IMG/VR virus record: IMGVR_UViG_3300033141_002903
Coordinates: 1-51,589 of that record
Direction: 5' to 3' (one strand)
DNA length: 51,589 bases
Source: a virus
Taxonomy: Duplodnaviria; Caudoviricetes
The position numbers and the translations under genes were made by a program. The notes below the pieces were generated by a model. The model made no database searches. It saw only the letters and a list, made by a program, of their open reading frames with translations, and had not been told where the DNA came from. How positions within the stretch are numbered: position 1 is the stretch's first letter; every line of letters begins with the position of its first letter. This document shows positions 17,200 through 36,659 of this stretch, in pieces.

Positions 17200-17614
17200 T
17201 AGTTCTGATTACACCCTCCCTTATTTGTTTTTCTAAAGGTCTAACCATATAATTCTCATTATGCCATATTCTATGTTGTAATTGCTTTATTTGGGCTCTA
17301 ACCCTTTTCATAGGCATATCCATTTTTATAAATTCTTCTTGTGTTGCAATTTCAACCTTAAGCGATTCCTTTTCTATGTCTTCTAGTTCCTTTCCTTCAG
17401 CTGTTTTTCCACTCTTAAGTTGCTCTTTCAAATTTTTTAGATTTTGCTCTGCAAGTTTATGGTCCAACCTTATTTCTAATCTTTTTTCGAGGTTCTTTAT
17501 GCTAAGCTTATCTTCTTCTATTTGTTGTTTGATTTCAGATAGTTTAGCCTTTTTCATTATTATGTCTCTTTCACTAAGTTCAATAACTCTATTCATTTTT
17601 TCACCTCCTTTCAC
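17192..17614 (-). CDS. Coiled-coil hypothetical protein
   Basis: E/K-rich heptads with an internal repeat. Confidence 0.65.
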   Translation of the reverse strand: MKGGEKMNRVIELSERDIIMKKAKLSEIKQQIEEDKLSIKNLEKRLEIRLDHKLAEQNLKNLKEQLKSGKTAEGKELEDIEKESLKVEIATQEEFIKMDMPMKRVRAQIKQLQHRIWHNENYMVRPLEKQIREGVIRTNE

Positions 17615-18186
17615 TTATCTAAATCTAATGGTTTAATTATTTTAATGTATCCTTCACGATGCAATCTTGTAAGAGCAACGTTCAGGTGTTTATTCAGGTC
17701 AGATAATGTTGGCATACTTTTTTTCATTTCTAATGTTATTTTGCCTTGTTCCTCTCTTAAAAAAGCTATTTGGTCCTTAATTTCCCTAACTATTTGAACT
17801 ATTGCTGGAACTGTTCTGATAAATTTTAAATAAGTTCTAATATCGTCTATATCTTCTTTTTCTATGTTATCTAATGTTTTTTTTGCTAAATCATGCAACC
17901 TGTCCATTGTTTCAACTATTTCATTAAATCTATTGTCCATAGCCTTAATGTGTTCTTTAAAATGATTTCCATGTTTCTTACTTACTGTTAGACTTAAAGC
18001 CATTTCGTCTTGATATAATTTTTTAACAGTAGGAACAGATAATTTGACATCTTGTGCTATTTCGTCCCAAGTTTTTCCTTTACCCCTTAATAGAATTATT
18101 TTTTGTCTTTCTTTCAGGTGTCTTGATTCAGATGCCTTGCCGTCTATTTTTAGTCTGGGATTTATAGTAACTTTTTTCTTTTTCAT
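17611..18186 (-). CDS. HTH protein, possibly terminase small subunit-like
   Basis: 'GKTWDEIAQDVKLSVPTVKK' HTH followed by a helical region. Confidence 0.55.
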   Translation of the reverse strand: MKKKKVTINPRLKIDGKASESRHLKERQKIILLRGKGKTWDEIAQDVKLSVPTVKKLYQDEMALSLTVSKKHGNHFKEHIKAMDNRFNEIVETMDRLHDLAKKTLDNIEKEDIDDIRTYLKFIRTVPAIVQIVREIKDQIAFLREEQGKITLEMKKSMPTLSDLNKHLNVALTRLHREGYIKIIKPLDLDK

Positions 18187-25760: not shown

Positions 25761-27788
25761 TCATTTCATCTTCTCCTTTGCTTCTTCAATGGTTAAACCA
25801 GCAATTTCTTTTAAATCGTGTTCTAGCATTTCTTTGATTATTTCTTTATAAGTGTATTTTGGCTCCCATCCAAGAGTATTTCTAATTTTAGTTGAGTCCC
25901 CTAGCAATGCTGGAACTTCTGCAGGTCTAAAATATTTCTCGCTTACTTCAACATATTTTTTCCAGTCAAGACCAATCATATCAAAAGCATCTTTTAAGAA
26001 TTCTCTAATAGAATGTGTTTCATTTGTGCTAACAACAAAATCATCTGGTTTATCGTGTGTAATAATCAGATACATCGCCTTAATGTAGTCTAAACTATGA
26101 CCCCAATCCCTTGTAGCATTCAAATTGCCCAAAATCAATTTATCTTGTTTTCCAGCAACTATCCTTGCTATACCTCTTGTTATTTTCCTTGTAACAAAAT
26201 TAACTGTTCTTCTTGGAGAATTATGGACATGAATATTTCCAATACCCGCAATAAACTCCCCACTTTCAGTTTCTAAATCATAAAACCACCCCTTATAATT
26301 GGACATGTCAATAGTTTTTGTTACCTCTGCAAAAGGTTTTGATAAATGAGATTTTATTCCTTTTGGGCTATTTAGGTTAATACAATATATAATTGAACCT
26401 GTTTTTCCTGTTGTTGTATAAAAAGTCTTTCTTTGGGTTGGTAATAAAATATCTGTTAAATACCACAATCCCTGTGCTAATGTTGCAGAATTAGTTTTAA
26501 AAGCCTTAAACTCATAAACACATTTATCTTTTTTTAAGCCATCACAATTATTGTAACCTCTTAAAAAGGACATTTGGGCTTCTTTATTAGCATTTAAAAT
26601 TCTCTTTGGAATTCTTTTATATCTTTCAGAAGTGTACAAATCTAATTCTTTTGTCCAATTATTTCCAGTAAAATATATTTGTTTAACAGTATTACCTTTC
26701 TTAAATCCACTTGATGTATCTTGCTCGTAAGTATGAGTTCCAACAATTTTATTCCACAATTCTAAAAATCTCTTTCTAATTTTTTCATCATTTTTTGTAA
26801 ATTTACCCATATTTCCTTTTTTATTTATATACCCATCAGCAACTAACATCCCTATTAATTCTGCTTCCTCATTAGAAACAAAATCAGAAACATTTTTAAT
26901 TATATTCAGATTAACTAATTCAAATCTATCTCCTTTAGAAATTTCTCTTGTTTTTTTTTCTTCTCCTTCCATAAATGCGACATGGTCACCAGTAGCCATA
27001 TATCCCCCGCATCTTCCAGAAATGAATTTTGGGTCTTTATTGTTCTCTAAATCATGTGGATAGCCTGAAGCATATTTAACCTTAACCCACCCTTTTTTAC
27101 CCAAAATTTCCAAATCTGATATTTCTTTGTGTTGATATTTTTTATTAGATTTATCTATAAATGTTAAAACATCTGTAAGAGGTTTAATATCAAATTTATT
27201 TCCTTCTTTTACAAAAATAGGCATAAAATCTGCCATTGTCTCATGATTAAAACAAATAGAATTACAAGCAAATATCCCATAAGCATTCCTGTAAAGTTTA
27301 ACCAGATGATACGCACCAAGTTTTGCTATTCCATAAGGGCTTACTGGTAGCATTTTAGTATCTTCTTTTTGTGGTGGGGGGCTAATTCCAAACATTTCAC
27401 TAGAACTACATTGTAAAAATCTTGTCTTAGGAGAGAAGTTTTTAATTGCTTCAAGTATTCTCAAAACACCAAGAAGATTATAATTTAAAGTAGATTCTGG
27501 AGTTTTAAAACTAATACTAACGTGGCTCATAGCAGAAGTGTTGATAAAATAATCTGGTTTATGTTTTTTTATTAATTCATTGATATTACAAGCATCAGAA
27601 AGGTCAAAATACTCCATTTTAAAGTTCTGGTTTTCATCTTCTAATGAGCAAAGCAATTCATATCTTTCAGAATTTGGACAAGCATTTCTCCTAATAAGAC
27701 CAATTACTTTTTCACCCCTATTTAGCAGAAATTCTATTAGATTACTTCCATCCATTCCTGTTGCACCAGAAATCATCCATAAACTCAT
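25761..27788 (-). CDS. gmd: GDP-mannose 4,6-dehydratase containing an intein
   Basis: 'GATGMDG', 'AMSHV', 'SSSEMFG', 'YGIAK', FNHE|SPRR split by an insert, 'RDWGH', 'RPAEV'. Confidence 0.93.
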   Translation of the reverse strand: MSLWMISGATGMDGSNLIEFLLNRGEKVIGLIRRNACPNSERYELLCSLEDENQNFKMEYFDLSDACNINELIKKHKPDYFINTSAMSHVSISFKTPESTLNYNLLGVLRILEAIKNFSPKTRFLQCSSSEMFGISPPPQKEDTKMLPVSPYGIAKLGAYHLVKLYRNAYGIFACNSICFNHETMADFMPIFVKEGNKFDIKPLTDVLTFIDKSNKKYQHKEISDLEILGKKGWVKVKYASGYPHDLENNKDPKFISGRCGGYMATGDHVAFMEGEEKKTREISKGDRFELVNLNIIKNVSDFVSNEEAELIGMLVADGYINKKGNMGKFTKNDEKIRKRFLELWNKIVGTHTYEQDTSSGFKKGNTVKQIYFTGNNWTKELDLYTSERYKRIPKRILNANKEAQMSFLRGYNNCDGLKKDKCVYEFKAFKTNSATLAQGLWYLTDILLPTQRKTFYTTTGKTGSIIYCINLNSPKGIKSHLSKPFAEVTKTIDMSNYKGWFYDLETESGEFIAGIGNIHVHNSPRRTVNFVTRKITRGIARIVAGKQDKLILGNLNATRDWGHSLDYIKAMYLIITHDKPDDFVVSTNETHSIREFLKDAFDMIGLDWKKYVEVSEKYFRPAEVPALLGDSTKIRNTLGWEPKYTYKEIIKEMLEHDLKEIAGLTIEEAKEKMK
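26220..27239 (-). mobile_element. LAGLIDADG intein (340 aa) in gmd, starting with Thr
   Basis: Insert TMADF...VHN between NHE and SPRR; block B 'ATGDH'; 'LIGMLVADG' and 'FLRGYNNCDG'; block F 'FYDLET'. Confidence 0.9.
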
Positions 27789-28433: not shown

Positions 28434-28504
28434 TTGGTCTGCGTGGAATTGAACCACGACTAAAGGGTTATGAGCCCAGTGTGCTACCTTTACACTACAG
28501 ACCA
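28434..28504 (-). tRNA. tRNA-Met(CAT), initiator-like, no encoded CCA
   Basis: TGGTCTG/CAGACCA acceptor stem; GTGT/GCAC D stem; CTCATAA anticodon loop with GGG/CCC; CGTGG-TTCAATT-CCACG T arm. Confidence 0.85.
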
Positions 28505-28528
28505 TTTCTTGTTTCATTTTCTAAAAAT

Positions 28529-28644
28529 GTCAGCGTGAGTATCCTCTCCAAACAGGCATACGCTATTGTAATTTTCTTCCCCTGTGGAGATTCGTGTCTC
28601 CAGATAAACCCCCAATAGCAAAGATTTATCCTTTTTTCGCTGAC
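28529..28644 (-). ncRNA. Putative structured RNA immediately upstream of the tRNA
   Basis: Nested stems GUCAGCG/CGCUGAC, GCUAUUG/CAAUAGC, UGGAGA/UCUCCA, GUAU/AUAC. Confidence 0.4.
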
Positions 28645-28815
28645 TATTTGGTACATCTTGGTATATTGAGGTACATTGCTAATTTAATTCGTTTTCTCTA
28701 ACTTTTTTGTCCGAAATCATCTGAAGTGTGTAGTTTTTGAAAATGTTAAGCATATTCTATTAACTTCCAAAAAAGATTATCCTCCTTTATTTTACATTTC
28801 TCTGGATGTTCTTTT

Positions 28816-29097
28816 TCATCTAACTCTTTCTGAACATCCTTTCTTGAATATAACTTTTTTGGGTATCTTATTATTTTCATTTTCATTTTCTTTCCATACT
28901 TGTTCAAAAGAAACATCTTCTCCTTTTCCTTTTCTAAAAAATGTTTCAGCTACCCGCCACAAAACTGCATCTGAAGACATTATTGGTTGTTGTTTTGCAA
29001 GACTAATATCTTTAGAACATTTTCTACACAAACATCCTTTTGAACAACCCATAATTCCTCCTGTTATTTTTTGTTGGCATAATTTACAATTTGTCAT
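28816..29097 (-). CDS. Cys-rich (Zn-finger-like) hypothetical protein
   Basis: CKLC...CLCRKC; GGGAG before MTNC. Confidence 0.6.
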   Translation of the reverse strand: MTNCKLCQQKITGGIMGCSKGCLCRKCSKDISLAKQQPIMSSDAVLWRVAETFFRKGKGEDVSFEQVWKENENENNKIPKKVIFKKGCSERVR

Positions 29098-29260
29098 TAG
29101 TTTCTCCCAACTTTGGAGCAAAATCCAAAATTTCGTTTAATATTGGGATTAAGGAGAGTTTTTACAGAGTAAAAATTCGGGCAGTCGTTAGACTGCTCTT
29201 TAATCCATATTAAACTCTCCGTAGGAAAACCCGAAGGGTTTAGTTCCGTCCCAAATCGTT

Positions 29261-29524
29261 TCATATTAATCGCCTATTTACTTTAATTTTGTCCATAATC
29301 TTTAGATTTTTTCCAGTTTCATAAGGTATAACAAATGATTCATCAACACCAAAATTGGAAACAGTAATTCTTAAACTAATGGGGAGATGTTTTCCTCCCA
29401 CAAAAATTTGGGTTTGTTCAACATTTATCCCAGTTATTACATTTTCTGTTTCAAATTCCAGTTTCTCATTTGTTCTATTGAAAAATCTTTTCTCTTCTTT
29501 TTGGACACTGACTTTTTTGCTCAT
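29261..29524 (-). CDS. Hypothetical protein looped out of junction 1
   Basis: AGGAGG SD; enclosed by the 29242-29257/29562-29577 stem. Confidence 0.7.
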   Translation of the reverse strand: MSKKVSVQKEEKRFFNRTNEKLEFETENVITGINVEQTQIFVGGKHLPISLRITVSNFGVDESFVIPYETGKNLKIMDKIKVNRRLI

Positions 29525-29698
29525 TTTAAACCTCCTGAGTTTAGCTGAACCCCGCCCACAAGATTTGGGACGGAATTGAGTTTAATGTATGCGGATAAGT
29601 TCTCCGTAAGGAAAAAATCCGCAGGATTTTTAGTTTTATGAGCGAAGCGAATAAAATTGAATTTATCCGCTATTATGTTCCCTGCATTAGCAGGTTGA

Positions 29699-29848
29699 TT
29701 AATCGGCATCATCATCTTTACCTTCTATTTTTAACCAATTCTTAGCATTCTCTTTATCAAATATATCTTCAAACCCTTGATTATTCCTTATCTGATTTTT
29801 TAAATCTTGTATCTCAAATTCATTTTCTGGTTCTTTCCACATTTTCAT
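29699..29848 (-). CDS. 49-aa acidic protein looped out of junction 3, missed by the ORF track
   Basis: AAGGAGGT SD; MKMWKEPENEFEIQDLK...DDDAD*; the stop codon lies inside the stem. Confidence 0.65.
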   Translation of the reverse strand: MKMWKEPENEFEIQDLKNQIRNNQGFEDIFDKENAKNWLKIEGKDDDAD

Positions 29849-30021
29849 TACCTCCTTATAGCCGATTAATCAAAGTTTTCCGTCAGGAAAATTGAACATA
29901 ATATCTGCGATTATGGAAAGTTTGTCGTTAAACAAATTTGGGGAGTTCGTTAGAACTCCTCTATAATCGCTATTAATCGCCCCGTAGGGCGTTGCGTAGC
30001 AACGAGTAAAGGAGAGTGCGG

Positions 30022-30342
30022 TCATTCTTCCCCCCTACATTTTTTTAAATGGGCGTAAAGTTTTGGAGCAGTTTCACAATCTCTTTCTTCATCATATAGT
30101 TTCATTAAAGTATCCCATTCTTCTGCAATTCCTTTCCAAATAGGATATTTCTTTGATAAATCAATTATTAAATCTCTGACTTTATGTTTATGATATTCTA
30201 AACAATCAAATAATAAATGAATACATCTCTGAAAGTCAGATGGGTCTCTTGGAATTGCAGGTCTTTCTTTTTCAATACCTAAGATAAATGAAACTATTGT
30301 TAAACTGCTTTCTCCATAATCAGACCATTTAATTTTTTCCAT
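30022..30342 (-). CDS. Phage-type hypothetical protein looped out of junction 4
   Basis: 'GESSLTI...PRDPSDFQRC..LL...W' pattern; its SD (AAAGGAG) lies within the closing stem. Confidence 0.75.
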   Translation of the reverse strand: MEKIKWSDYGESSLTIVSFILGIEKERPAIPRDPSDFQRCIHLLFDCLEYHKHKVRDLIIDLSKKYPIWKGIAEEWDTLMKLYDEERDCETAPKLYAHLKKCRGEE

Positions 30343-30420
30343 TTTACAAGCACTCTCCTTTATTGCGATTAATACCCTTTAATCGAACTTTCCACATGAA
30401 GTCTTGGTTAAGTTTATTTA

Positions 30421-30573
30421 TCATTTTTTATTTAATTTAATTTTACTTAATCTAAGTTTCATTTTTATATAGCATCCAGCAGGACTATTATCATAATACA
30501 TTCCTCTTGTTTTATTGCATGTGTTTGAGTTTGCATCATAATTCTCACAAGTTTTCCAATATTTGCATTTCAT
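30421..30573 (-). CDS. Small Cys-rich protein
   Basis: MKCKYWKTC..., coupled by ATGA to the upstream gene. Confidence 0.55.
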   Translation of the reverse strand: MKCKYWKTCENYDANSNTCNKTRGMYYDNSPAGCYIKMKLRLSKIKLNKK

Positions 30574-30821
30574 TCTAACTCCTTAAATCCTGCTTTTTGT
30601 TTGATTATCTCTCTATCAACCATATAACTAACCTTAACATTTCTTTCATTAATTAAATCTAAAATATCTTGTGGTAAATCATTTAGTTTAATGCAAGATA
30701 AATCTGAATCTAAAATTTCTTTAAAGCATTGTTTAACGTCTTCTTCATAATATGCTGTATTATAATCTCGGCTGTTTGGGTCTAATTCAAATCCTTTTTC
30801 ACTCAATGTTTTTTCTTTCAT
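30570..30821 (-). CDS. Hypothetical protein, paralogue of 32906..33262
   Basis: Shares TLSEK, DVKQ..KEILD and IIKQKAGFKELE. Confidence 0.7.
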   Translation of the reverse strand: MKEKTLSEKGFELDPNSRDYNTAYYEEDVKQCFKEILDSDLSCIKLNDLPQDILDLINERNVKVSYMVDREIIKQKAGFKELE

Positions 30822-30979
30822 TCTATTTTCCATTTGACATTTCTTAATTTATCCAATACACCATCTTTATTTGTTAAAATATTATAAGTAATTTCAAATG
30901 CTTTTAGTACTTCTTTTACTTTTTCAAAGTCCCTCATATTATTAAATTCTTCTTCAGTTGCTAATTTTATTTTATTCAT
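30818..30979 (-). CDS. Small hypothetical protein
   Basis: MNKIKLATEEE..., coupled to its neighbours. Confidence 0.5.
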   Translation of the reverse strand: MNKIKLATEEEFNNMRDFEKVKEVLKAFEITYNILTNKDGVLDKLRNVKWKIE

Positions 30980-32905: not shown

Positions 32906-33262
32906 ATGAAAAAAGAAAATACTTTGAGTGAGAAAGAAATGAAAATGGGCAGACATTTAAGACCAGTTTACGCTAAAAAAGATGTCAAACAATTCATAAA
33001 AGAGATTTTAGATGAGATTGATAATTTAATTGAAGATAATAAAATAGATTTATTCCGTAAGAAGTTTGGTAAGAAAGTTTTTGGAAAATATGATTTTAGA
33101 TTTTTAATGGGATGTTCAAATTGTGTAGAGAACAAAAAAATGCTTAATGATTTAATGAAGGATAAAGAATTAATTTTGATACAGGAAAAGGCTCAATTAA
33201 AAATAATAAAAGAAATCAAACAAATAATTAAACAAAAAGCAGGATTTAAGGAGTTAGAATGA
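32906..33262 (+). CDS. Hypothetical protein, paralogue of 30570..30821
   Basis: Shared N- and C-terminal blocks. Confidence 0.7.
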   Translation: MKKENTLSEKEMKMGRHLRPVYAKKDVKQFIKEILDEIDNLIEDNKIDLFRKKFGKKVFGKYDFRFLMGCSNCVENKKMLNDLMKDKELILIQEKAQLKIIKEIKQIIKQKAGFKELE

Positions 33263-33482: not shown

Positions 33483-33962
33483 ATGGAGAGATTGAAAATA
33501 AAGAGAACAACAAAATATGGTGTTGAATTGGTTGAGCCAAAGGAAGATGGAGGTCCTAATTATAGGAATACCACAGAAGCTGTTAGGAATTTTCTATCAA
33601 AACAATGTCCTTGTGAGGTAGAAGTTCAGGAAATGGAAGGAAATGAAATTAGCAGGGTTAAGGTTATAAATAAAGGGAATCAAGGACCCTTTAAACAAAC
33701 AGAAGTAATTCCTGCTGATAAATGTAGTGATGAAAACTCTTATTGGAATTGGAGAACAGATTTTGAATTGCAAAAGCAGAAAAAGATTGAACAACAATTC
33801 TATGAGAGAGAAGCCCTTAAAACAATTGAAATCGCCTTAAAGATGATTGAGTTAAATAATTCAATTCCAGAAAGGGAAAAGATTATTCCAACAGCATCAT
33901 CAATTTTGGATACAACCAAAGTATTGCAAGGAATTATTGAAGAAATAAAGAAAAAGGAGTAA
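33483..33962 (+). CDS. Hypothetical protein (beta-rich N-terminal domain; possibly ssDNA-binding)
   Basis: Strong AAGGAGGT SD; the function is speculative. Confidence 0.55.
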   Translation: MERLKIKRTTKYGVELVEPKEDGGPNYRNTTEAVRNFLSKQCPCEVEVQEMEGNEISRVKVINKGNQGPFKQTEVIPADKCSDENSYWNWRTDFELQKQKKIEQQFYEREALKTIEIALKMIELNNSIPEREKIIPTASSILDTTKVLQGIIEEIKKKE

Positions 33963-34901
33963 TATAATGGAGCGAGAACATCTTGAAATACTCCAAACAG
34001 CAATTTTCTTACTTGAGGGTGTATCTGATGCTGATTTAATGCTTAGATACAATCTTTTACATAGAAAGAAGAAAGCAGAAAAGATAGTGGATATTTTAAA
34101 AAGTTAATTTTTTTTGCATTTTTTTAGAATATTTTTTGCATTTTTTTTAGGATTTTTTTGAATTATGTCTTTGTTTCTTCTCTTGCTGTCATACTTTTTC
34201 ATATAAGGTATATTCAATTTATAATAATGCAATCTTTTTTAAGTTCTTCTTCGTTCATTCTAACACCCCATTTATTTTTAACTCATCAAATATATTTTTT
34301 AAATCACCCTCATCTAAAAAAATACTTGCTTTAAGTAAATTATTTACCTGATAATTAAGAGTAACCCCTCTTTCTTCTATTTCTATCCATAAGTCACGAT
34401 CACCTTTTATTTTAATAAAAATTATTTTGGATATGTTCATTTTAACAAATTTTACCCTCCTGTTTAGTTAAATAAATATTTATACAATCCTTTACACCCC
34501 CCCAACCAACCACATAAATATAATATAGTAAATATAATAAACCAAATAAAAAAGGGCTTTTTTTAAGAGAAAACCCTGAAACTCTTTTAATTTTAGAAAA
34601 GCCACTACTGACTATTAATGAATTTTCTTTTCTTGATTCTTTGTTTGTTTTTCTTATTGATTCGTTTATTTCTTTTTTTATTTCTTTTTTTAGTTCTTCA
34701 CATAACAACACCATTTTTAATCACCCTACCAGAATAAAAGACAGGGTATTTAAATAATTTTCTATTAACTTATTAATAGTTACAATCTTATAATTTTGAA
34801 GAAAAATCTGAAATTGAAGATTGGTTAAATGAAAATGTGGATAAATGGTATGAATAAGTTTAGTTACTAAACTTAAAAATTAAATTAGGAGGAAAAACAA
34901 G

Positions 34902-35198
34902 ATGTTAGCAAATGTTACACATATAGCAGATTTTAGTAGTGCTGTTGAGTTTTTTGAAGAACAACCTTATTTAACTTTAAATGGGCTTTGTGAATTGTTT
35001 AATTTAGAGTTAGATGATATAAAAGGTTATGCAGAAACTAATGAAGTAAGTAATGAAATGGCTATCTTTGAACTTCTTAATGAAAAAGGCATAAGTGATG
35101 AAGAAATGATTGAAGAAGTTTTGAAGAATGAGAAAGAAAGTTATTTTGTTACTTATAACGACACAACAGACGATTTTAGCGTTTATCGTATAGATTAA
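34902..35198 (+). CDS. Acidic hypothetical protein
   Basis: AGGAGG SD; very D/E-rich. Confidence 0.7.
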   Translation: MLANVTHIADFSSAVEFFEEQPYLTLNGLCELFNLELDDIKGYAETNEVSNEMAIFELLNEKGISDEEMIEEVLKNEKESYFVTYNDTTDDFSVYRID

Positions 35199-35421
35199 AG
35201 AATAGTTACTATTCTTAATAATTAAATAGGAGAAAATTGAAAATGAAAAAAGTAGATTTGGATTTAGAGTTTGAAAGGTGGAAACAAGACAACGAAGAAC
35301 ACCTTAGAGAGAAGTTTTTGGAAATCCATAACTTTCAAGAATATCTGGAAGAAGCGTGGAGAGAATACCAGAACGAAAATGGATTAATTGATAAATCCAA
35401 TATTTAAGGTTACTTATTAAG

Positions 35422-35455
35422 GGGTAGTTATAAAATTATAATAATGTAACTACCC
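35422..35455. promoter_or_regulatory. Palindromic operator-like site
   Basis: GGGTAGTTA-N16-TAACTACCC in AT-rich intergenic DNA. Confidence 0.5.
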
Positions 35456-35643
35456 AATAGTTTAAAGATAAATATATAAATACTAAATGTTTTAAAAAAT
35501 TAAGATGGAACTTAAAAAAAGAGAAGAAAAGGAAATAAGGAAAAAGTGGGAAAAATTATCAGATGGTGAAAAATGCAGGTTTAATGGATATAAGGATTTT
35601 GTATCTGTTGAACTATTAAGGAGGAAATTGGATACAGAATAAA

Positions 35644-35913
35644 ATGGGATTTTCAACAATAGGAATAAAACCAGAAACAAAGAAAAAACTTAATGAATTT
35701 AAGGACTATTTAAAGGGAGAAATCAAGATAAGAAGTGATGATGATTTAATAAATTATCTGATTAAAAGTAACCTAAAATATCTTGAAATGGATTATAATA
35801 AGAAGAAAATTAAGTGGGAGAGAGAATATTTGGAATTGTGCAGGAAAAATAAACCCAAAATGTCATTTGAAGAATTTAAACAGAAAAAAATAACAGCAGA
35901 ATTAAAATGTTAA
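35644..35913 (+). CDS. RHH/antitoxin-like DNA-binding protein
   Basis: 'STIGIKPETKKKL...SDDDLINYLI' resembles archaeal RHH proteins. Confidence 0.55.
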   Translation: MGFSTIGIKPETKKKLNEFKDYLKGEIKIRSDDDLINYLIKSNLKYLEMDYNKKKIKWEREYLELCRKNKPKMSFEEFKQKKITAELKC

Positions 35914-36104
35914 TTGATGAGTTGAATTTAAAAGACGAATTAAAGGAGTTTATTCGTAAAGAATTTGGTGAGGTTGAAAGTCTTAAAATTATCAAGAATA
36001 CAAAGGGATTTAATTGGGAATTTAAATTGGTTGGGAAAGTTGAAGAGCAAATAAAGAGAATAATCAAAATAAACGAGGAGTTAGAAACTATCTTGAGATG
36101 TTGA
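35907..36104 (+). CDS. Hypothetical protein
   Basis: Coupled ORF. Confidence 0.55.
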   Translation: MLIDELNLKDELKEFIRKEFGEVESLKIIKNTKGFNWEFKLVGKVEEQIKRIIKINEELETILRC

Positions 36105-36227
36105 AATGAACAAAGAAATTAAGGTAAGTTTTGAACAGATTAAAAGGAAATGCAAGACGATTAAAGATTTAAGGGATTTATACTCTAATATAGAGAAAAT
36201 GAGACAGGTGAAAGGAGGGGTTAAAAA

Positions 36228-36659
36228 ATGAGTGCTTTTTTAATGAGTTTTCAAAGTTTAAGCAATCTTACAAATTGGTTTTATTTTGAAAATGACACAC
36301 ACGGAACTTTTAAAGGTTGTAAAAGAGAAATTTTTAAATTATTTCCAGAATTTGAGAAAGCAAAGTTTAAAGATAATTGGAATAAAGTTTTAGCAGAAGA
36401 ACTTTATAAATTAAATTGTTATTCTTTAAACCAAAGATACGGAGATGATTTAAAGAGTTTTCCAGAATTTGAACATAAAGAACCCGAAAAAATAGATATT
36501 TTTCAGTGTTTAAAATCTGTTCAGTGTTGGCTTTATCAAAGTTGCGAGGGAGACGCAGACACAAAACCACTTTATAAGATGATGCGAAGAATTGAGAAGG
36601 TTCTTTTAAATGCGATAGTAAATAGTTTAGAAGAATATAAAATCGCAAAGTGGGAATAA
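36228..36659 (+). CDS. Phage-type hypothetical protein
   Basis: AAGGAGG SD; 'LN..SLNQRYGD...LKSVQCWLYQSCEG'. Confidence 0.7.
   Translation: MSAFLMSFQSLSNLTNWFYFENDTHGTFKGCKREIFKLFPEFEKAKFKDNWNKVLAEELYKLNCYSLNQRYGDDLKSFPEFEHKEPEKIDIFQCLKSVQCWLYQSCEGDADTKPLYKMMRRIEKVLLNAIVNSLEEYKIAKWE

Follow-up and report, generated by a model that had tools for sequence, protein, structure and literature searches.

A folded element at positions 29146-30374 of the window, by which we mean the whole 51,589-bp stretch of DNA analysed here (IMG/VR record IMGVR_UViG_3300033141_002903), belongs to a strongly covarying and widespread family of nucleic-acid structures. The window represents the complete genome of a tailed virus, with terminal repeats and a G+C content of 30.6%, and it encodes terminase, portal, capsid and tail proteins. 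The element, hereafter the scaffold, consists of three- and four-way junction modules, whose junctions have almost no unpaired bases, and of long-range stems that enclose each of three small minus-strand open reading frames (ORFs) in two tiers. It folds on the + strand, which is the template strand of these genes, and neither the fold nor its assignment to that strand leaves us in serious doubt. With the ORF interiors masked, 372 of the 454 non-ORF bases are paired on the + strand, and all six long-range stems are recovered in unconstrained folds, with RNA and DNA parameters alike. As the best explanation of the whole we propose, tentatively, that a scaffold folding on one strand punctuates swappable accessory-gene cassettes in uncultivated tailed viruses. 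No account of such a scaffold was found in the literature searched (main texts, few subscription journals).

The evidence for the fold is comparative. A complete related genome (G001), reached through terminase relatives at 76% identity, has two homologous modules flanking a C5 methyltransferase gene. A shared-motif pattern search of viral contigs gave matches in 63 stretches, the 25 best-folding of which were inspected, and a covariance model was built on 11 modules; its first run returned 17 forward matches in 7 sources, 6 outside the training set of the model. A stricter pattern combined with the model matched 4 of the 80 listed loci among genome contigs, and gave 63 forward matches in 26 of the 80 listed metagenome loci. 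The totals for the family, which are a lower bound, come to at least 87 modules (86 distinct) in at least 37 viral or metagenome loci. Across 2468 alignment cells, 95.9% are standard pairs, and 25 of the 29 pairs have changes on both sides; when the partners were slid by 1-3 columns as a control, 33-53% were paired. Against Rfam, only a tRNA-Met in the window scored above gathering, the best E-values within 28500-30700 being 1.5 to 4.2, i.e., at chance level, and a blastn search of cultured phages with 29100-30420 gave no match. The tRNA-Met gene itself (anticodon CAT, 28434-28504, minus strand) lies directly downstream of the cassette array in the gene sense. At one locus of the family (L115, 3643-3707), a weak and shorter model match (27.7 bits) stands beside two full modules and may be a degenerate or minimal module.

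The strand of the fold is revealed by the polarity of its wobble pairs. In the 86 modules, the folding strand has 184 G.T cells and 14 A.C cells (the equivalent of G.T on the other strand), in addition to 86 other mismatches, and one G.T pair is kept in 85 of the 86. Model scores on the reverse strand are far lower (e.g., 36.8 versus 97.2 bits on the folding strand), modules on both strands of one locus occur at 0 of the 37 loci, and the longest open frame runs opposite to the modules in 45 of 51 intervals, the six exceptions being short or ambiguous. Taken together, these counts strongly support an earlier note on this DNA, which had placed the fold on the non-coding strand and not on the mRNA. 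Stems for mRNA processing or stability were considered, and rejected on the wobble polarity. A mutational or compositional origin of the G.T excess was likewise rejected: the + strand is C- and T-rich, with (T/A)x(G/C) at about 0.94, so that composition predicts no such excess.

The long-range stems extend the pairing across whole genes. In 42 of the 51 intervals between neighbouring modules, the ends of the cargo are joined by an unbroken helix that is 11 bp or longer (in most cases 14-18 bp), compared with 29 of 293 mismatched flank pairs, most of the latter arising from recurring arm sequences. The helices span 215-1114 nucleotides (nt), and their pattern is invariably AGT.../...ATT, the second pair being a G.T. 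Of the two tiers around each gene, the outer is a stem of about 11 bp, with an invariant ATATT/AATAT core and a covarying 6-nt address, and the inner is the AGT.../...ATT arm of about 16 bp; core, address and arm together come to about 28-30 paired bp. The address pairs across the cargo with the next module: in the 40 intervals that remained when 11 of the 51, in which a simple rule did not locate the core, were dropped, the long-range partner was better in 32 and the partner within the same module in 2, with 6 ties, and the mean pairing was 5.8 versus 3.65 of 7 positions. The geometry is also regular: in 32 of 39 intervals, the centre of the core is 23-24 nt away from the end of the arm that faces the loop. 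In the gene sense the loop starts with TCC(C/A) in 21 of 39, and a conserved leader with a GAGGTG-like ribosome site follows. That arbitrary sequences pair and covary over such distances requires a long single strand. Stems spanning 215-1114 nt cannot have originated by cruciform extrusion from a duplex, and the suggestion of the earlier note that the element might act when extruded was not borne out.

In the window, the modules fold far better than shuffled sequences (z-scores of -4.7 to -7.4). On the + strand, module A has z-scores of -7.10 (DNA) and -6.69 (RNA), is weaker on the minus strand and scores 78.9 bits with the model; module C2 has -7.26 (DNA) and -7.44 (RNA) and scores 62.6 bits; and domain B has -4.72 (DNA) and -5.96 (RNA). 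Module strands differ in energy by 6-9 kcal/mol with RNA parameters and 2-3 kcal/mol with DNA parameters, in favour of the + strand. Outer stem 1 formed 11 of its 11 pairs in unconstrained RNA folds and 9 of 11 in DNA folds, and inner stem 1, which includes a 14-nt perfect inverted repeat, formed 16 of 16; its arm recurs at another locus of the family (L251). The third arm of domain B looks like an arm pair without cargo. A local hairpin occupies the usual position of the 3' arm to the left of module A and therefore marks the left end of the array; a search for a distant partner arm for this leftmost cassette found none. The interiors of ORF1 and ORF2 fold in an ordinary manner (z of -0.42 and +0.41). 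The interior of ORF3 (30020-30349) is unusually foldable and forms one long imperfect hairpin (z of -3.67, with 0 of 100 shuffles as good). Neither the three cargo ORFs nor the three read-through frames matched Pfam at E <=0.1, and no relatives of ORF3 were found in viral contigs. The positions of these features are collected in Table 1.

Table 1. Features of the scaffold and its cargo in the window.
Feature	Position	Strand	Remarks
Local hairpin TTTGGA-GCAAAA-TCCAAA	29112..29129	+	Position of the long-range 3' arm in other cassettes
X motif of module A, CGTTTAATATT	29134..29144	+	Invariant TAATAT core; alignments A2, A6
Module A, three-way junction	29146..29206	+	Outer stem plus AGA-loop and GTTA-loop hairpins
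Y motif, 5' arm of outer stem 1	29207..29217	+	Partner 29578-29588
Two mini-hairpins, TCC-GTA-GGA and AAACCC-GAA-GGGTTT	29218..29241	+	
5' arm of inner stem 1, AGTTCCGTCCCAAATC	29242..29257	+	Partner 29562-29577
Cargo ORF1, 87 aa	29261..29524	-	Ribosome site AGGAGG; lies in the loop closed by stem 1
3' arms of inner and outer stems 1	29562..29588	+	
Domain B, four-way junction	29591..29670	+	Zero unpaired junction bases; GTAA, GCA and GAGCGAAGCGA tips
5' arm of outer stem 2	29671..29680	+	Partner 29894-29903; perfect inverted repeat, 10/10 pairs
Hairpin CCTGC-ATTA-GCAGG	29681..29694	+	
5' arm of inner stem 2	29695..29707	+	Partner 29861-29873; 13-nt perfect inverted repeat
Cargo ORF2, 49 aa	29699..29848	-	
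Inner 3' arm 2, hairpin AGTTTTCC-GTCA-GGAAAATT, outer 3' arm 2	29861..29903	+	
Module C2, three-way junction	29907..29970	+	Paralogue of module A
5' arm of outer stem 3	29971..29980	+	Partner 30365-30374; 10/10 pairs
Mini-hairpins CCC-GTA-GGG and CGTTGC-GTA-GCAACG	29981..30004	+	
5' arm of inner stem 3	30005..30019	+	Partner 30350-30364; 13-nt perfect inverted repeat, 15/15 pairs
Cargo ORF3, 106 aa	30022..30342	-	
3' arms of inner and outer stems 3	30350..30374	+	
Open frame through module A, gene sense	29097..29264	-	Start overlaps ORF1 stop, ATGA
Open frame through domain B	29521..29715	-	Stop overlaps ORF1 start, ATGA
Open frame through C segment	29870..30025	-	Start overlaps ORF3 stop, ATGA

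The hairpin loops that the earlier note had listed within 29156-30004 are all present where it placed them, i.e., C-GTA-G three times (29218-26, 29981-89 and 29990-30004), C-GAA-G twice (29227-41, and as GCGAAGC within GAGCGAAGCGA at 29640-50), C-GCA-G (29613-31), C-GTAA-G (29603-12), C-GTTA-G twice (29181-96 and 29942-59) and C-GTCA-G (29876-91), as are the deviant loops AGA, ATTA and CGTTAA. We counted fully matched stems of 4 bp or more that are closed by C-G. Seven c-GN(N)A-g hairpins occur in the whole window, six of them in 29181-30004, and a single one is of the mirror type c-TN(N)C-g, out of 703 small hairpins altogether. When 29146-30374 was shuffled 2000 times (mononucleotide shuffling), the c-GN(N)A-g type had a mean of 0.05 and a maximum of 2, and none reached six. 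The claim that the wobble pairs are G.T on the + strand and would be A.C on the mRNA also holds in the window, where G.T makes up 10 of the 186 scaffold pairs of the + strand fold (ORF interiors masked), with a few exceptions that the note omitted: two A.C juxtapositions adjoining helices, the only ones in that fold, and one further case seen by eye, TTCTCC/GGAAAA at 29600-15, favour the minus strand. The energy of the scaffold alone favours the + strand (RNA -203.5 versus -179.3, DNA -115.1 versus -106.8 kcal/mol). Over the whole 1.3 kb, ORF interiors included, RNA parameters do not separate the strands (-341.2 for + versus -340.8 for minus), and DNA parameters slightly favour the minus strand (-178.4 for + versus -182.4 kcal/mol for minus).

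The cargo differs between near-identical viruses, and it is often an orphan DNA methyltransferase. At least 15 of the 50 cargo ORFs in the family are DNA methyltransferases, from four families (9 N6_N4, 3 C5, 2 Dam and 1 MT-A70), 2 are YopX, and the remainder had no Pfam match. Over 4366 bp two loci share 99.98% identity, and beyond this stretch, starting with the first arm, they differ in the content and order of their cassettes; a 704-bp block of module plus cargo, 91.8% identical, is common to loci with different neighbours; and identical arms surround unrelated cargo, as with a C5 and an MT-A70 methyltransferase, or with ORF1 of the window and the cargo at L251. The genes appear to run into the modules: a stop-free frame crosses the module in the gene sense in 66 of 86, compared with 40 of 86 in the folding sense and 568 of 1720 shuffles. 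In relatives, the methyltransferase frames continue through the module, whereas in the window there are instead separate frames with ATGA overlaps. Invertible segments were considered and rejected, since the cargo keeps one orientation and the arms differ between cassettes.

Whether the active form is single-stranded + strand DNA or an RNA copied from the other strand is, in our judgement, close to an even matter. Of the claim in the earlier note that the element is folded DNA and not mRNA, the second half stands on the wobble polarity, and the choice between DNA and an antisense RNA only leans towards DNA, on the lack of GNRA loops. GNRA is the stable tetraloop class of RNA, and the 87 scaffold hairpins include 33 GNA loops and 19 GNYA loops (15 of these GTTA), with 0 GNRA and 0 of the mirror types; C-G closure of a G...A loop of 3-4 nt is found in 46 of the 87 (27 GNA, 19 GNYA). 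Most terminal loops of the scaffold are cGNAg or cGTTAg. DNA mini-hairpins of the types cGNAg, cGAAg, cGTTAg, GCGAAGC and GCGTTAGC have been described at single-strand origins and at N4 promoters (PMC13037366), and the loop chemistry accordingly leans towards DNA mini-hairpins rather than RNA tetraloops. A long structured antisense (+) RNA that folds into the modules, perhaps timing or silencing the expression of the methyltransferases and other cassettes, is possible, on the unlikely side. The strand polarity (184 G.T versus 14 A.C) fits it equally well, every stem is kept in the RNA fold, and its features are those typical of RNA: helices rich in G.U (about 7% of cells), a wobble that is near-invariant, and closing stems of 16 bp over up to 1.1 kb that resemble the processing stems of long RNAs. 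These features weigh against DNA, as do the 35 of 87 scaffold hairpins whose loops are not G...A and the nearest-neighbour energies, which are larger for RNA than for DNA; the energies are not decisive because the models carry no mini-hairpin bonus. The antisense RNA is opposed by the loops, by the lack of any Rfam match and by a search for a conserved + strand promoter or terminator that found none, and such an RNA would run against co-oriented genes that are apparently translated. On the folding strand, T runs of at least 5 also recur at intervals of some 150 nt (253 of them in 38.4 kb, versus 109 A runs, an excess that is partly base composition), and T runs would terminate archaeal transcription.

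Three further explanations were weighed. Folded single-stranded DNA recombination sites, following the logic of integron attC, would offer structure-specific crossovers, with the arms aligning neighbouring sites for excision, capture and reshuffling. The exchanges of cassettes between near-identical loci and around identical arms are what such sites would leave, cargo-less arm pairs exist (domain B and the hairpin at 29112-29129), and the fold lies on the template strand, as it does in attC. The likeness to integrons extends to a co-oriented cassette array, bottom-strand folded sites in between, ORFs running into the sites and content that varies among close relatives. In attC there are core sites, RYYYAAC/GTTRRRY, and extrahelical bases; the scaffold has no such cores, no extrahelical bases (as read on alignment A6) and no integrase, and its three-way junctions and gene-spanning stems are lacking in attC. 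The A6 consensus, GTTTAATAT...ATATTAAAC, has GTT on the 5' side and AAC on the 3' side, unlike the R''/R' order of attC, in helices that are 95.9% paired. When the two complete genomes were searched in six frames, no tyrosine recombinase (PF00589, present in 14 of 14 control genomes), no Y1 transposase of the IS200/IS605 type (PF01797; the host may encode one) and no serine recombinase or reverse transcriptase (controls matched) came to light, and the 50 cargo ORFs include no such enzyme. The breakpoints vary (arm starts, X core), as ordinary homologous recombination between conserved modules would give, and we regard dedicated recombination sites as improbable. Less probable again are selfish palindromic repeats or PeSL-like cassettes that act as duplex or in mRNA, the strand bias being a by-product of selection against mRNA folding. 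Rickettsia palindromic elements are translated, as the modules apparently are, given the stop-free frames in the gene sense. The PeSL elements of T4-like phages are short and conserved, flank variable small ORFs and mark the boundaries of indels and replacements (PMC4122927), which is how the repeats here flank variable ORFs. The PeSL stem-loop is a simple terminator on the mRNA strand, whereas the scaffold occupies the other strand, has several branches and encloses each gene, and no terminator-like T tail was found after the modules on the gene strand, apart from one scan match at 29196-29181. The covariation over up to 1.1 kb and in the module pairs requires pairing in a single strand, and the wobble counts place that pairing opposite the mRNA.

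The earlier note had drawn an analogy with the template-strand hairpins recognised by the virion RNA polymerase of phage N4, and promoters of this kind, formed by supercoil-driven extrusion, are the explanation to which we give the least credence, barely more than none. In an N4 promoter, a stem of 5-7 bp carries a loop of three nucleotides with a central purine; it forms on the template strand and is centred some 12 nt before the transcript start of an early gene. Several hairpins, AAACCC-GAA-GGGTTT and CGTTGC-GTA-GCAACG among them, have this stem and loop form, and stems of 5-8 bp with GNA loops do occur on the template strand among probably early genes. The hairpins, however, follow the genes on their 3' side instead of preceding the starts by about 12 nt; directly upstream of each gene, the 23-24 nt before the leader form the arm of a long-range stem and not a local hairpin, and stems of such reach cannot be extruded from a duplex. 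The search for a virion RNA polymerase found none: a 1750-residue ORF had 0 PHROG matches and only a lectin-like/arabinanase-like match in PDB, and no RNA polymerase was among 25 of the 28 Pfam families listed for 60 ORFs in a sequence-level search. The analogy with N4 promoters fails.

Our preferred reading, a single-strand scaffold at cassette boundaries, draws on other precedents. In plasmid leading regions, the Frpo element uses intrastrand pairing to mimic duplex promoter DNA on the transferred strand, and methyltransferase and anti-defence genes are all readable from that strand (PMC11541004). The scaffold shares with Frpo and ssi a fold on the template strand of co-oriented anti-defence genes, including orphan methyltransferases. 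The differences are that Frpo is a local stem-loop that holds the -35 and -10 boxes of sigma-70, and that its DNA arrives single-stranded, whereas in the scaffold each arm finds its partner past the distal end of the gene, a scan found no -35/-10 site and the virus is tailed, with no known single-strand stage. The loops cGAAg, cGTAg, cGTTAg and GCGAAGC are held in common with the origins of G4, St-1/alpha3 and ssiA and with the N4 early promoters (PMC13037366), where one to three hairpins serve each priming or promoter site; the scaffold has dozens, covarying, at cassette boundaries. The architecture of other termini is comparable in another respect, i.e., a stem with two small hairpins and hardly any unpaired junction bases, with GNA triloops in Streptomyces: the T/Y terminal hairpins of parvoviruses and the telomere fold-backs of Streptomyces form in single-stranded DNA and prime replication at genome ends. 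The scaffold differs in being internal, repeated and linked to genes. In our view it is a previously undescribed form of the strand-specific, single-strand signals that mark the boundaries of gene cassettes, and it could also be read as categorically new.

By analogy with Frpo, the scaffold may serve to rebuild promoters, a mechanism that we put forward as doubtful. Long-range pairing would cover the invariant A/T core through to the first leader bases of each gene, and on a single-stranded template it would restore the promoter region of the gene as duplex, the gene itself being the template loop. The junction modules, together with mini-hairpins that resist nucleases, would hold the pairing in register and insulate each cassette from its neighbours. 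Because core, address and arm together make about 28-30 paired bp, the duplex would reach from what would be the A/T box of an archaeal-type promoter as far as its transcript start, and since each cassette would store the complement of its promoter beyond its 3' end, the gene would be transcribable from the bare template strand. A role in recombination at the same junctions is compatible with the promoter reading. The broadest version, in which viruses, possibly archaeal, carry integron-like anti-restriction cassettes joined by junctions akin to single-stranded DNA origami and thereby hold a new single-strand promoter class, we consider unlikely.

Several points weigh against the scaffold as a single-strand device and against the promoters in particular. 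We know of no process that makes the + strand single-stranded in a tailed double-stranded DNA virus, and searches of the genome turned up no gene for replication, rolling-circle or transfer functions from which such a stage would follow. A simple consensus scan found no sigma-70-like site in the modules or arms on the gene strand, bearing in mind that the host may not use sigma-70. Contigs bearing the arrays were binned with Bathyarchaeota, Thermoplasmatales and Pacearchaeota, but also with Bacillota. The promoter reading presupposes an A/T box of the archaeal type, and the core agrees by eye at only 5 of 8 positions with the consensus TTTAWATA (PMC11065993). The search patterns demanded A/T cores and AGT, and the alignments were fitted by the model and lean towards structure; the module and cell counts are also not independent events, because the loci share ancestry.

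The wider genome offers limited guidance on the host or on a machinery for the scaffold. The closest cultured terminases are 22-26% identical and come from phages of hosts in several phyla of both domains, a protein atlas assigned the capsid protein to 'Viruses' only, and no dedicated enzyme was common to all array-bearing loci besides methyltransferases and structural genes. The array lies in a block of minus-strand genes at 14.6-32.15 kb. Within that block, a 191-residue ORF (17611-18186, minus strand) matches a PHROG annotated as RNase E (E 3.4e-08). Among the 60 ORFs scanned in the genome, one has a weak Sigma70_r4_2 match (E 2.9e-4); either protein could bear on RNA processing or on promoter use. 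A 675-residue ORF (25761-27788, minus strand) has ends that by eye resemble a NAD-dependent sugar dehydratase of the GDP-mannose dehydratase type and a large insert ending in HNS, which suggests an intein; its neighbours are aminotransferase, glycosyltransferase, sulfotransferase and methyltransferase genes. Small neighbouring ORFs with near-identical C-terminal peptides occur in the window (30570-30833 and 32906-33262, ending ...KQKAGFKELE) and in the relative G001 (L015 11919-14078, ending ...ELEEKEE), the shared endings probably being a conserved ribosome-site stretch for the next gene. G001 also has a 298-residue ORF (L015 12645-13541, plus strand) with a long 7-residue repeat, (V/A)(Y/C)GDA(E/K/R)V, encoded by a tandem DNA repeat. 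Finally, about 2.3 kb of the rightward operon of the window (33960-36230) hold only very small ORFs and have the lowest G+C of the genome, 25.5%.

Single-strand DNA signals have so far been those of conjugative plasmids, integrons, N4 and small single-stranded phages. If the scaffold is folded DNA, such signals, be they promoters, priming sites or recombination sites, extend to ordinary tailed viruses, and a single-stranded phase that nobody has looked for in these viruses is implied. Should the promoter mechanism be true, a double-stranded DNA virus would exploit a partly single-stranded state, e.g., after end resection or during strand-displacement replication, and the scaffold would be the first single-strand promoter class outside conjugation and phage N4. 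Whichever form is active, the family shows cleanly how the polarity of wobble pairs can place a structure on one strand, here the one opposite to the genes. It also marks islands of swappable orphan methyltransferases and small uncharacterised genes, and is therefore a practical beacon for new anti-defence genes.

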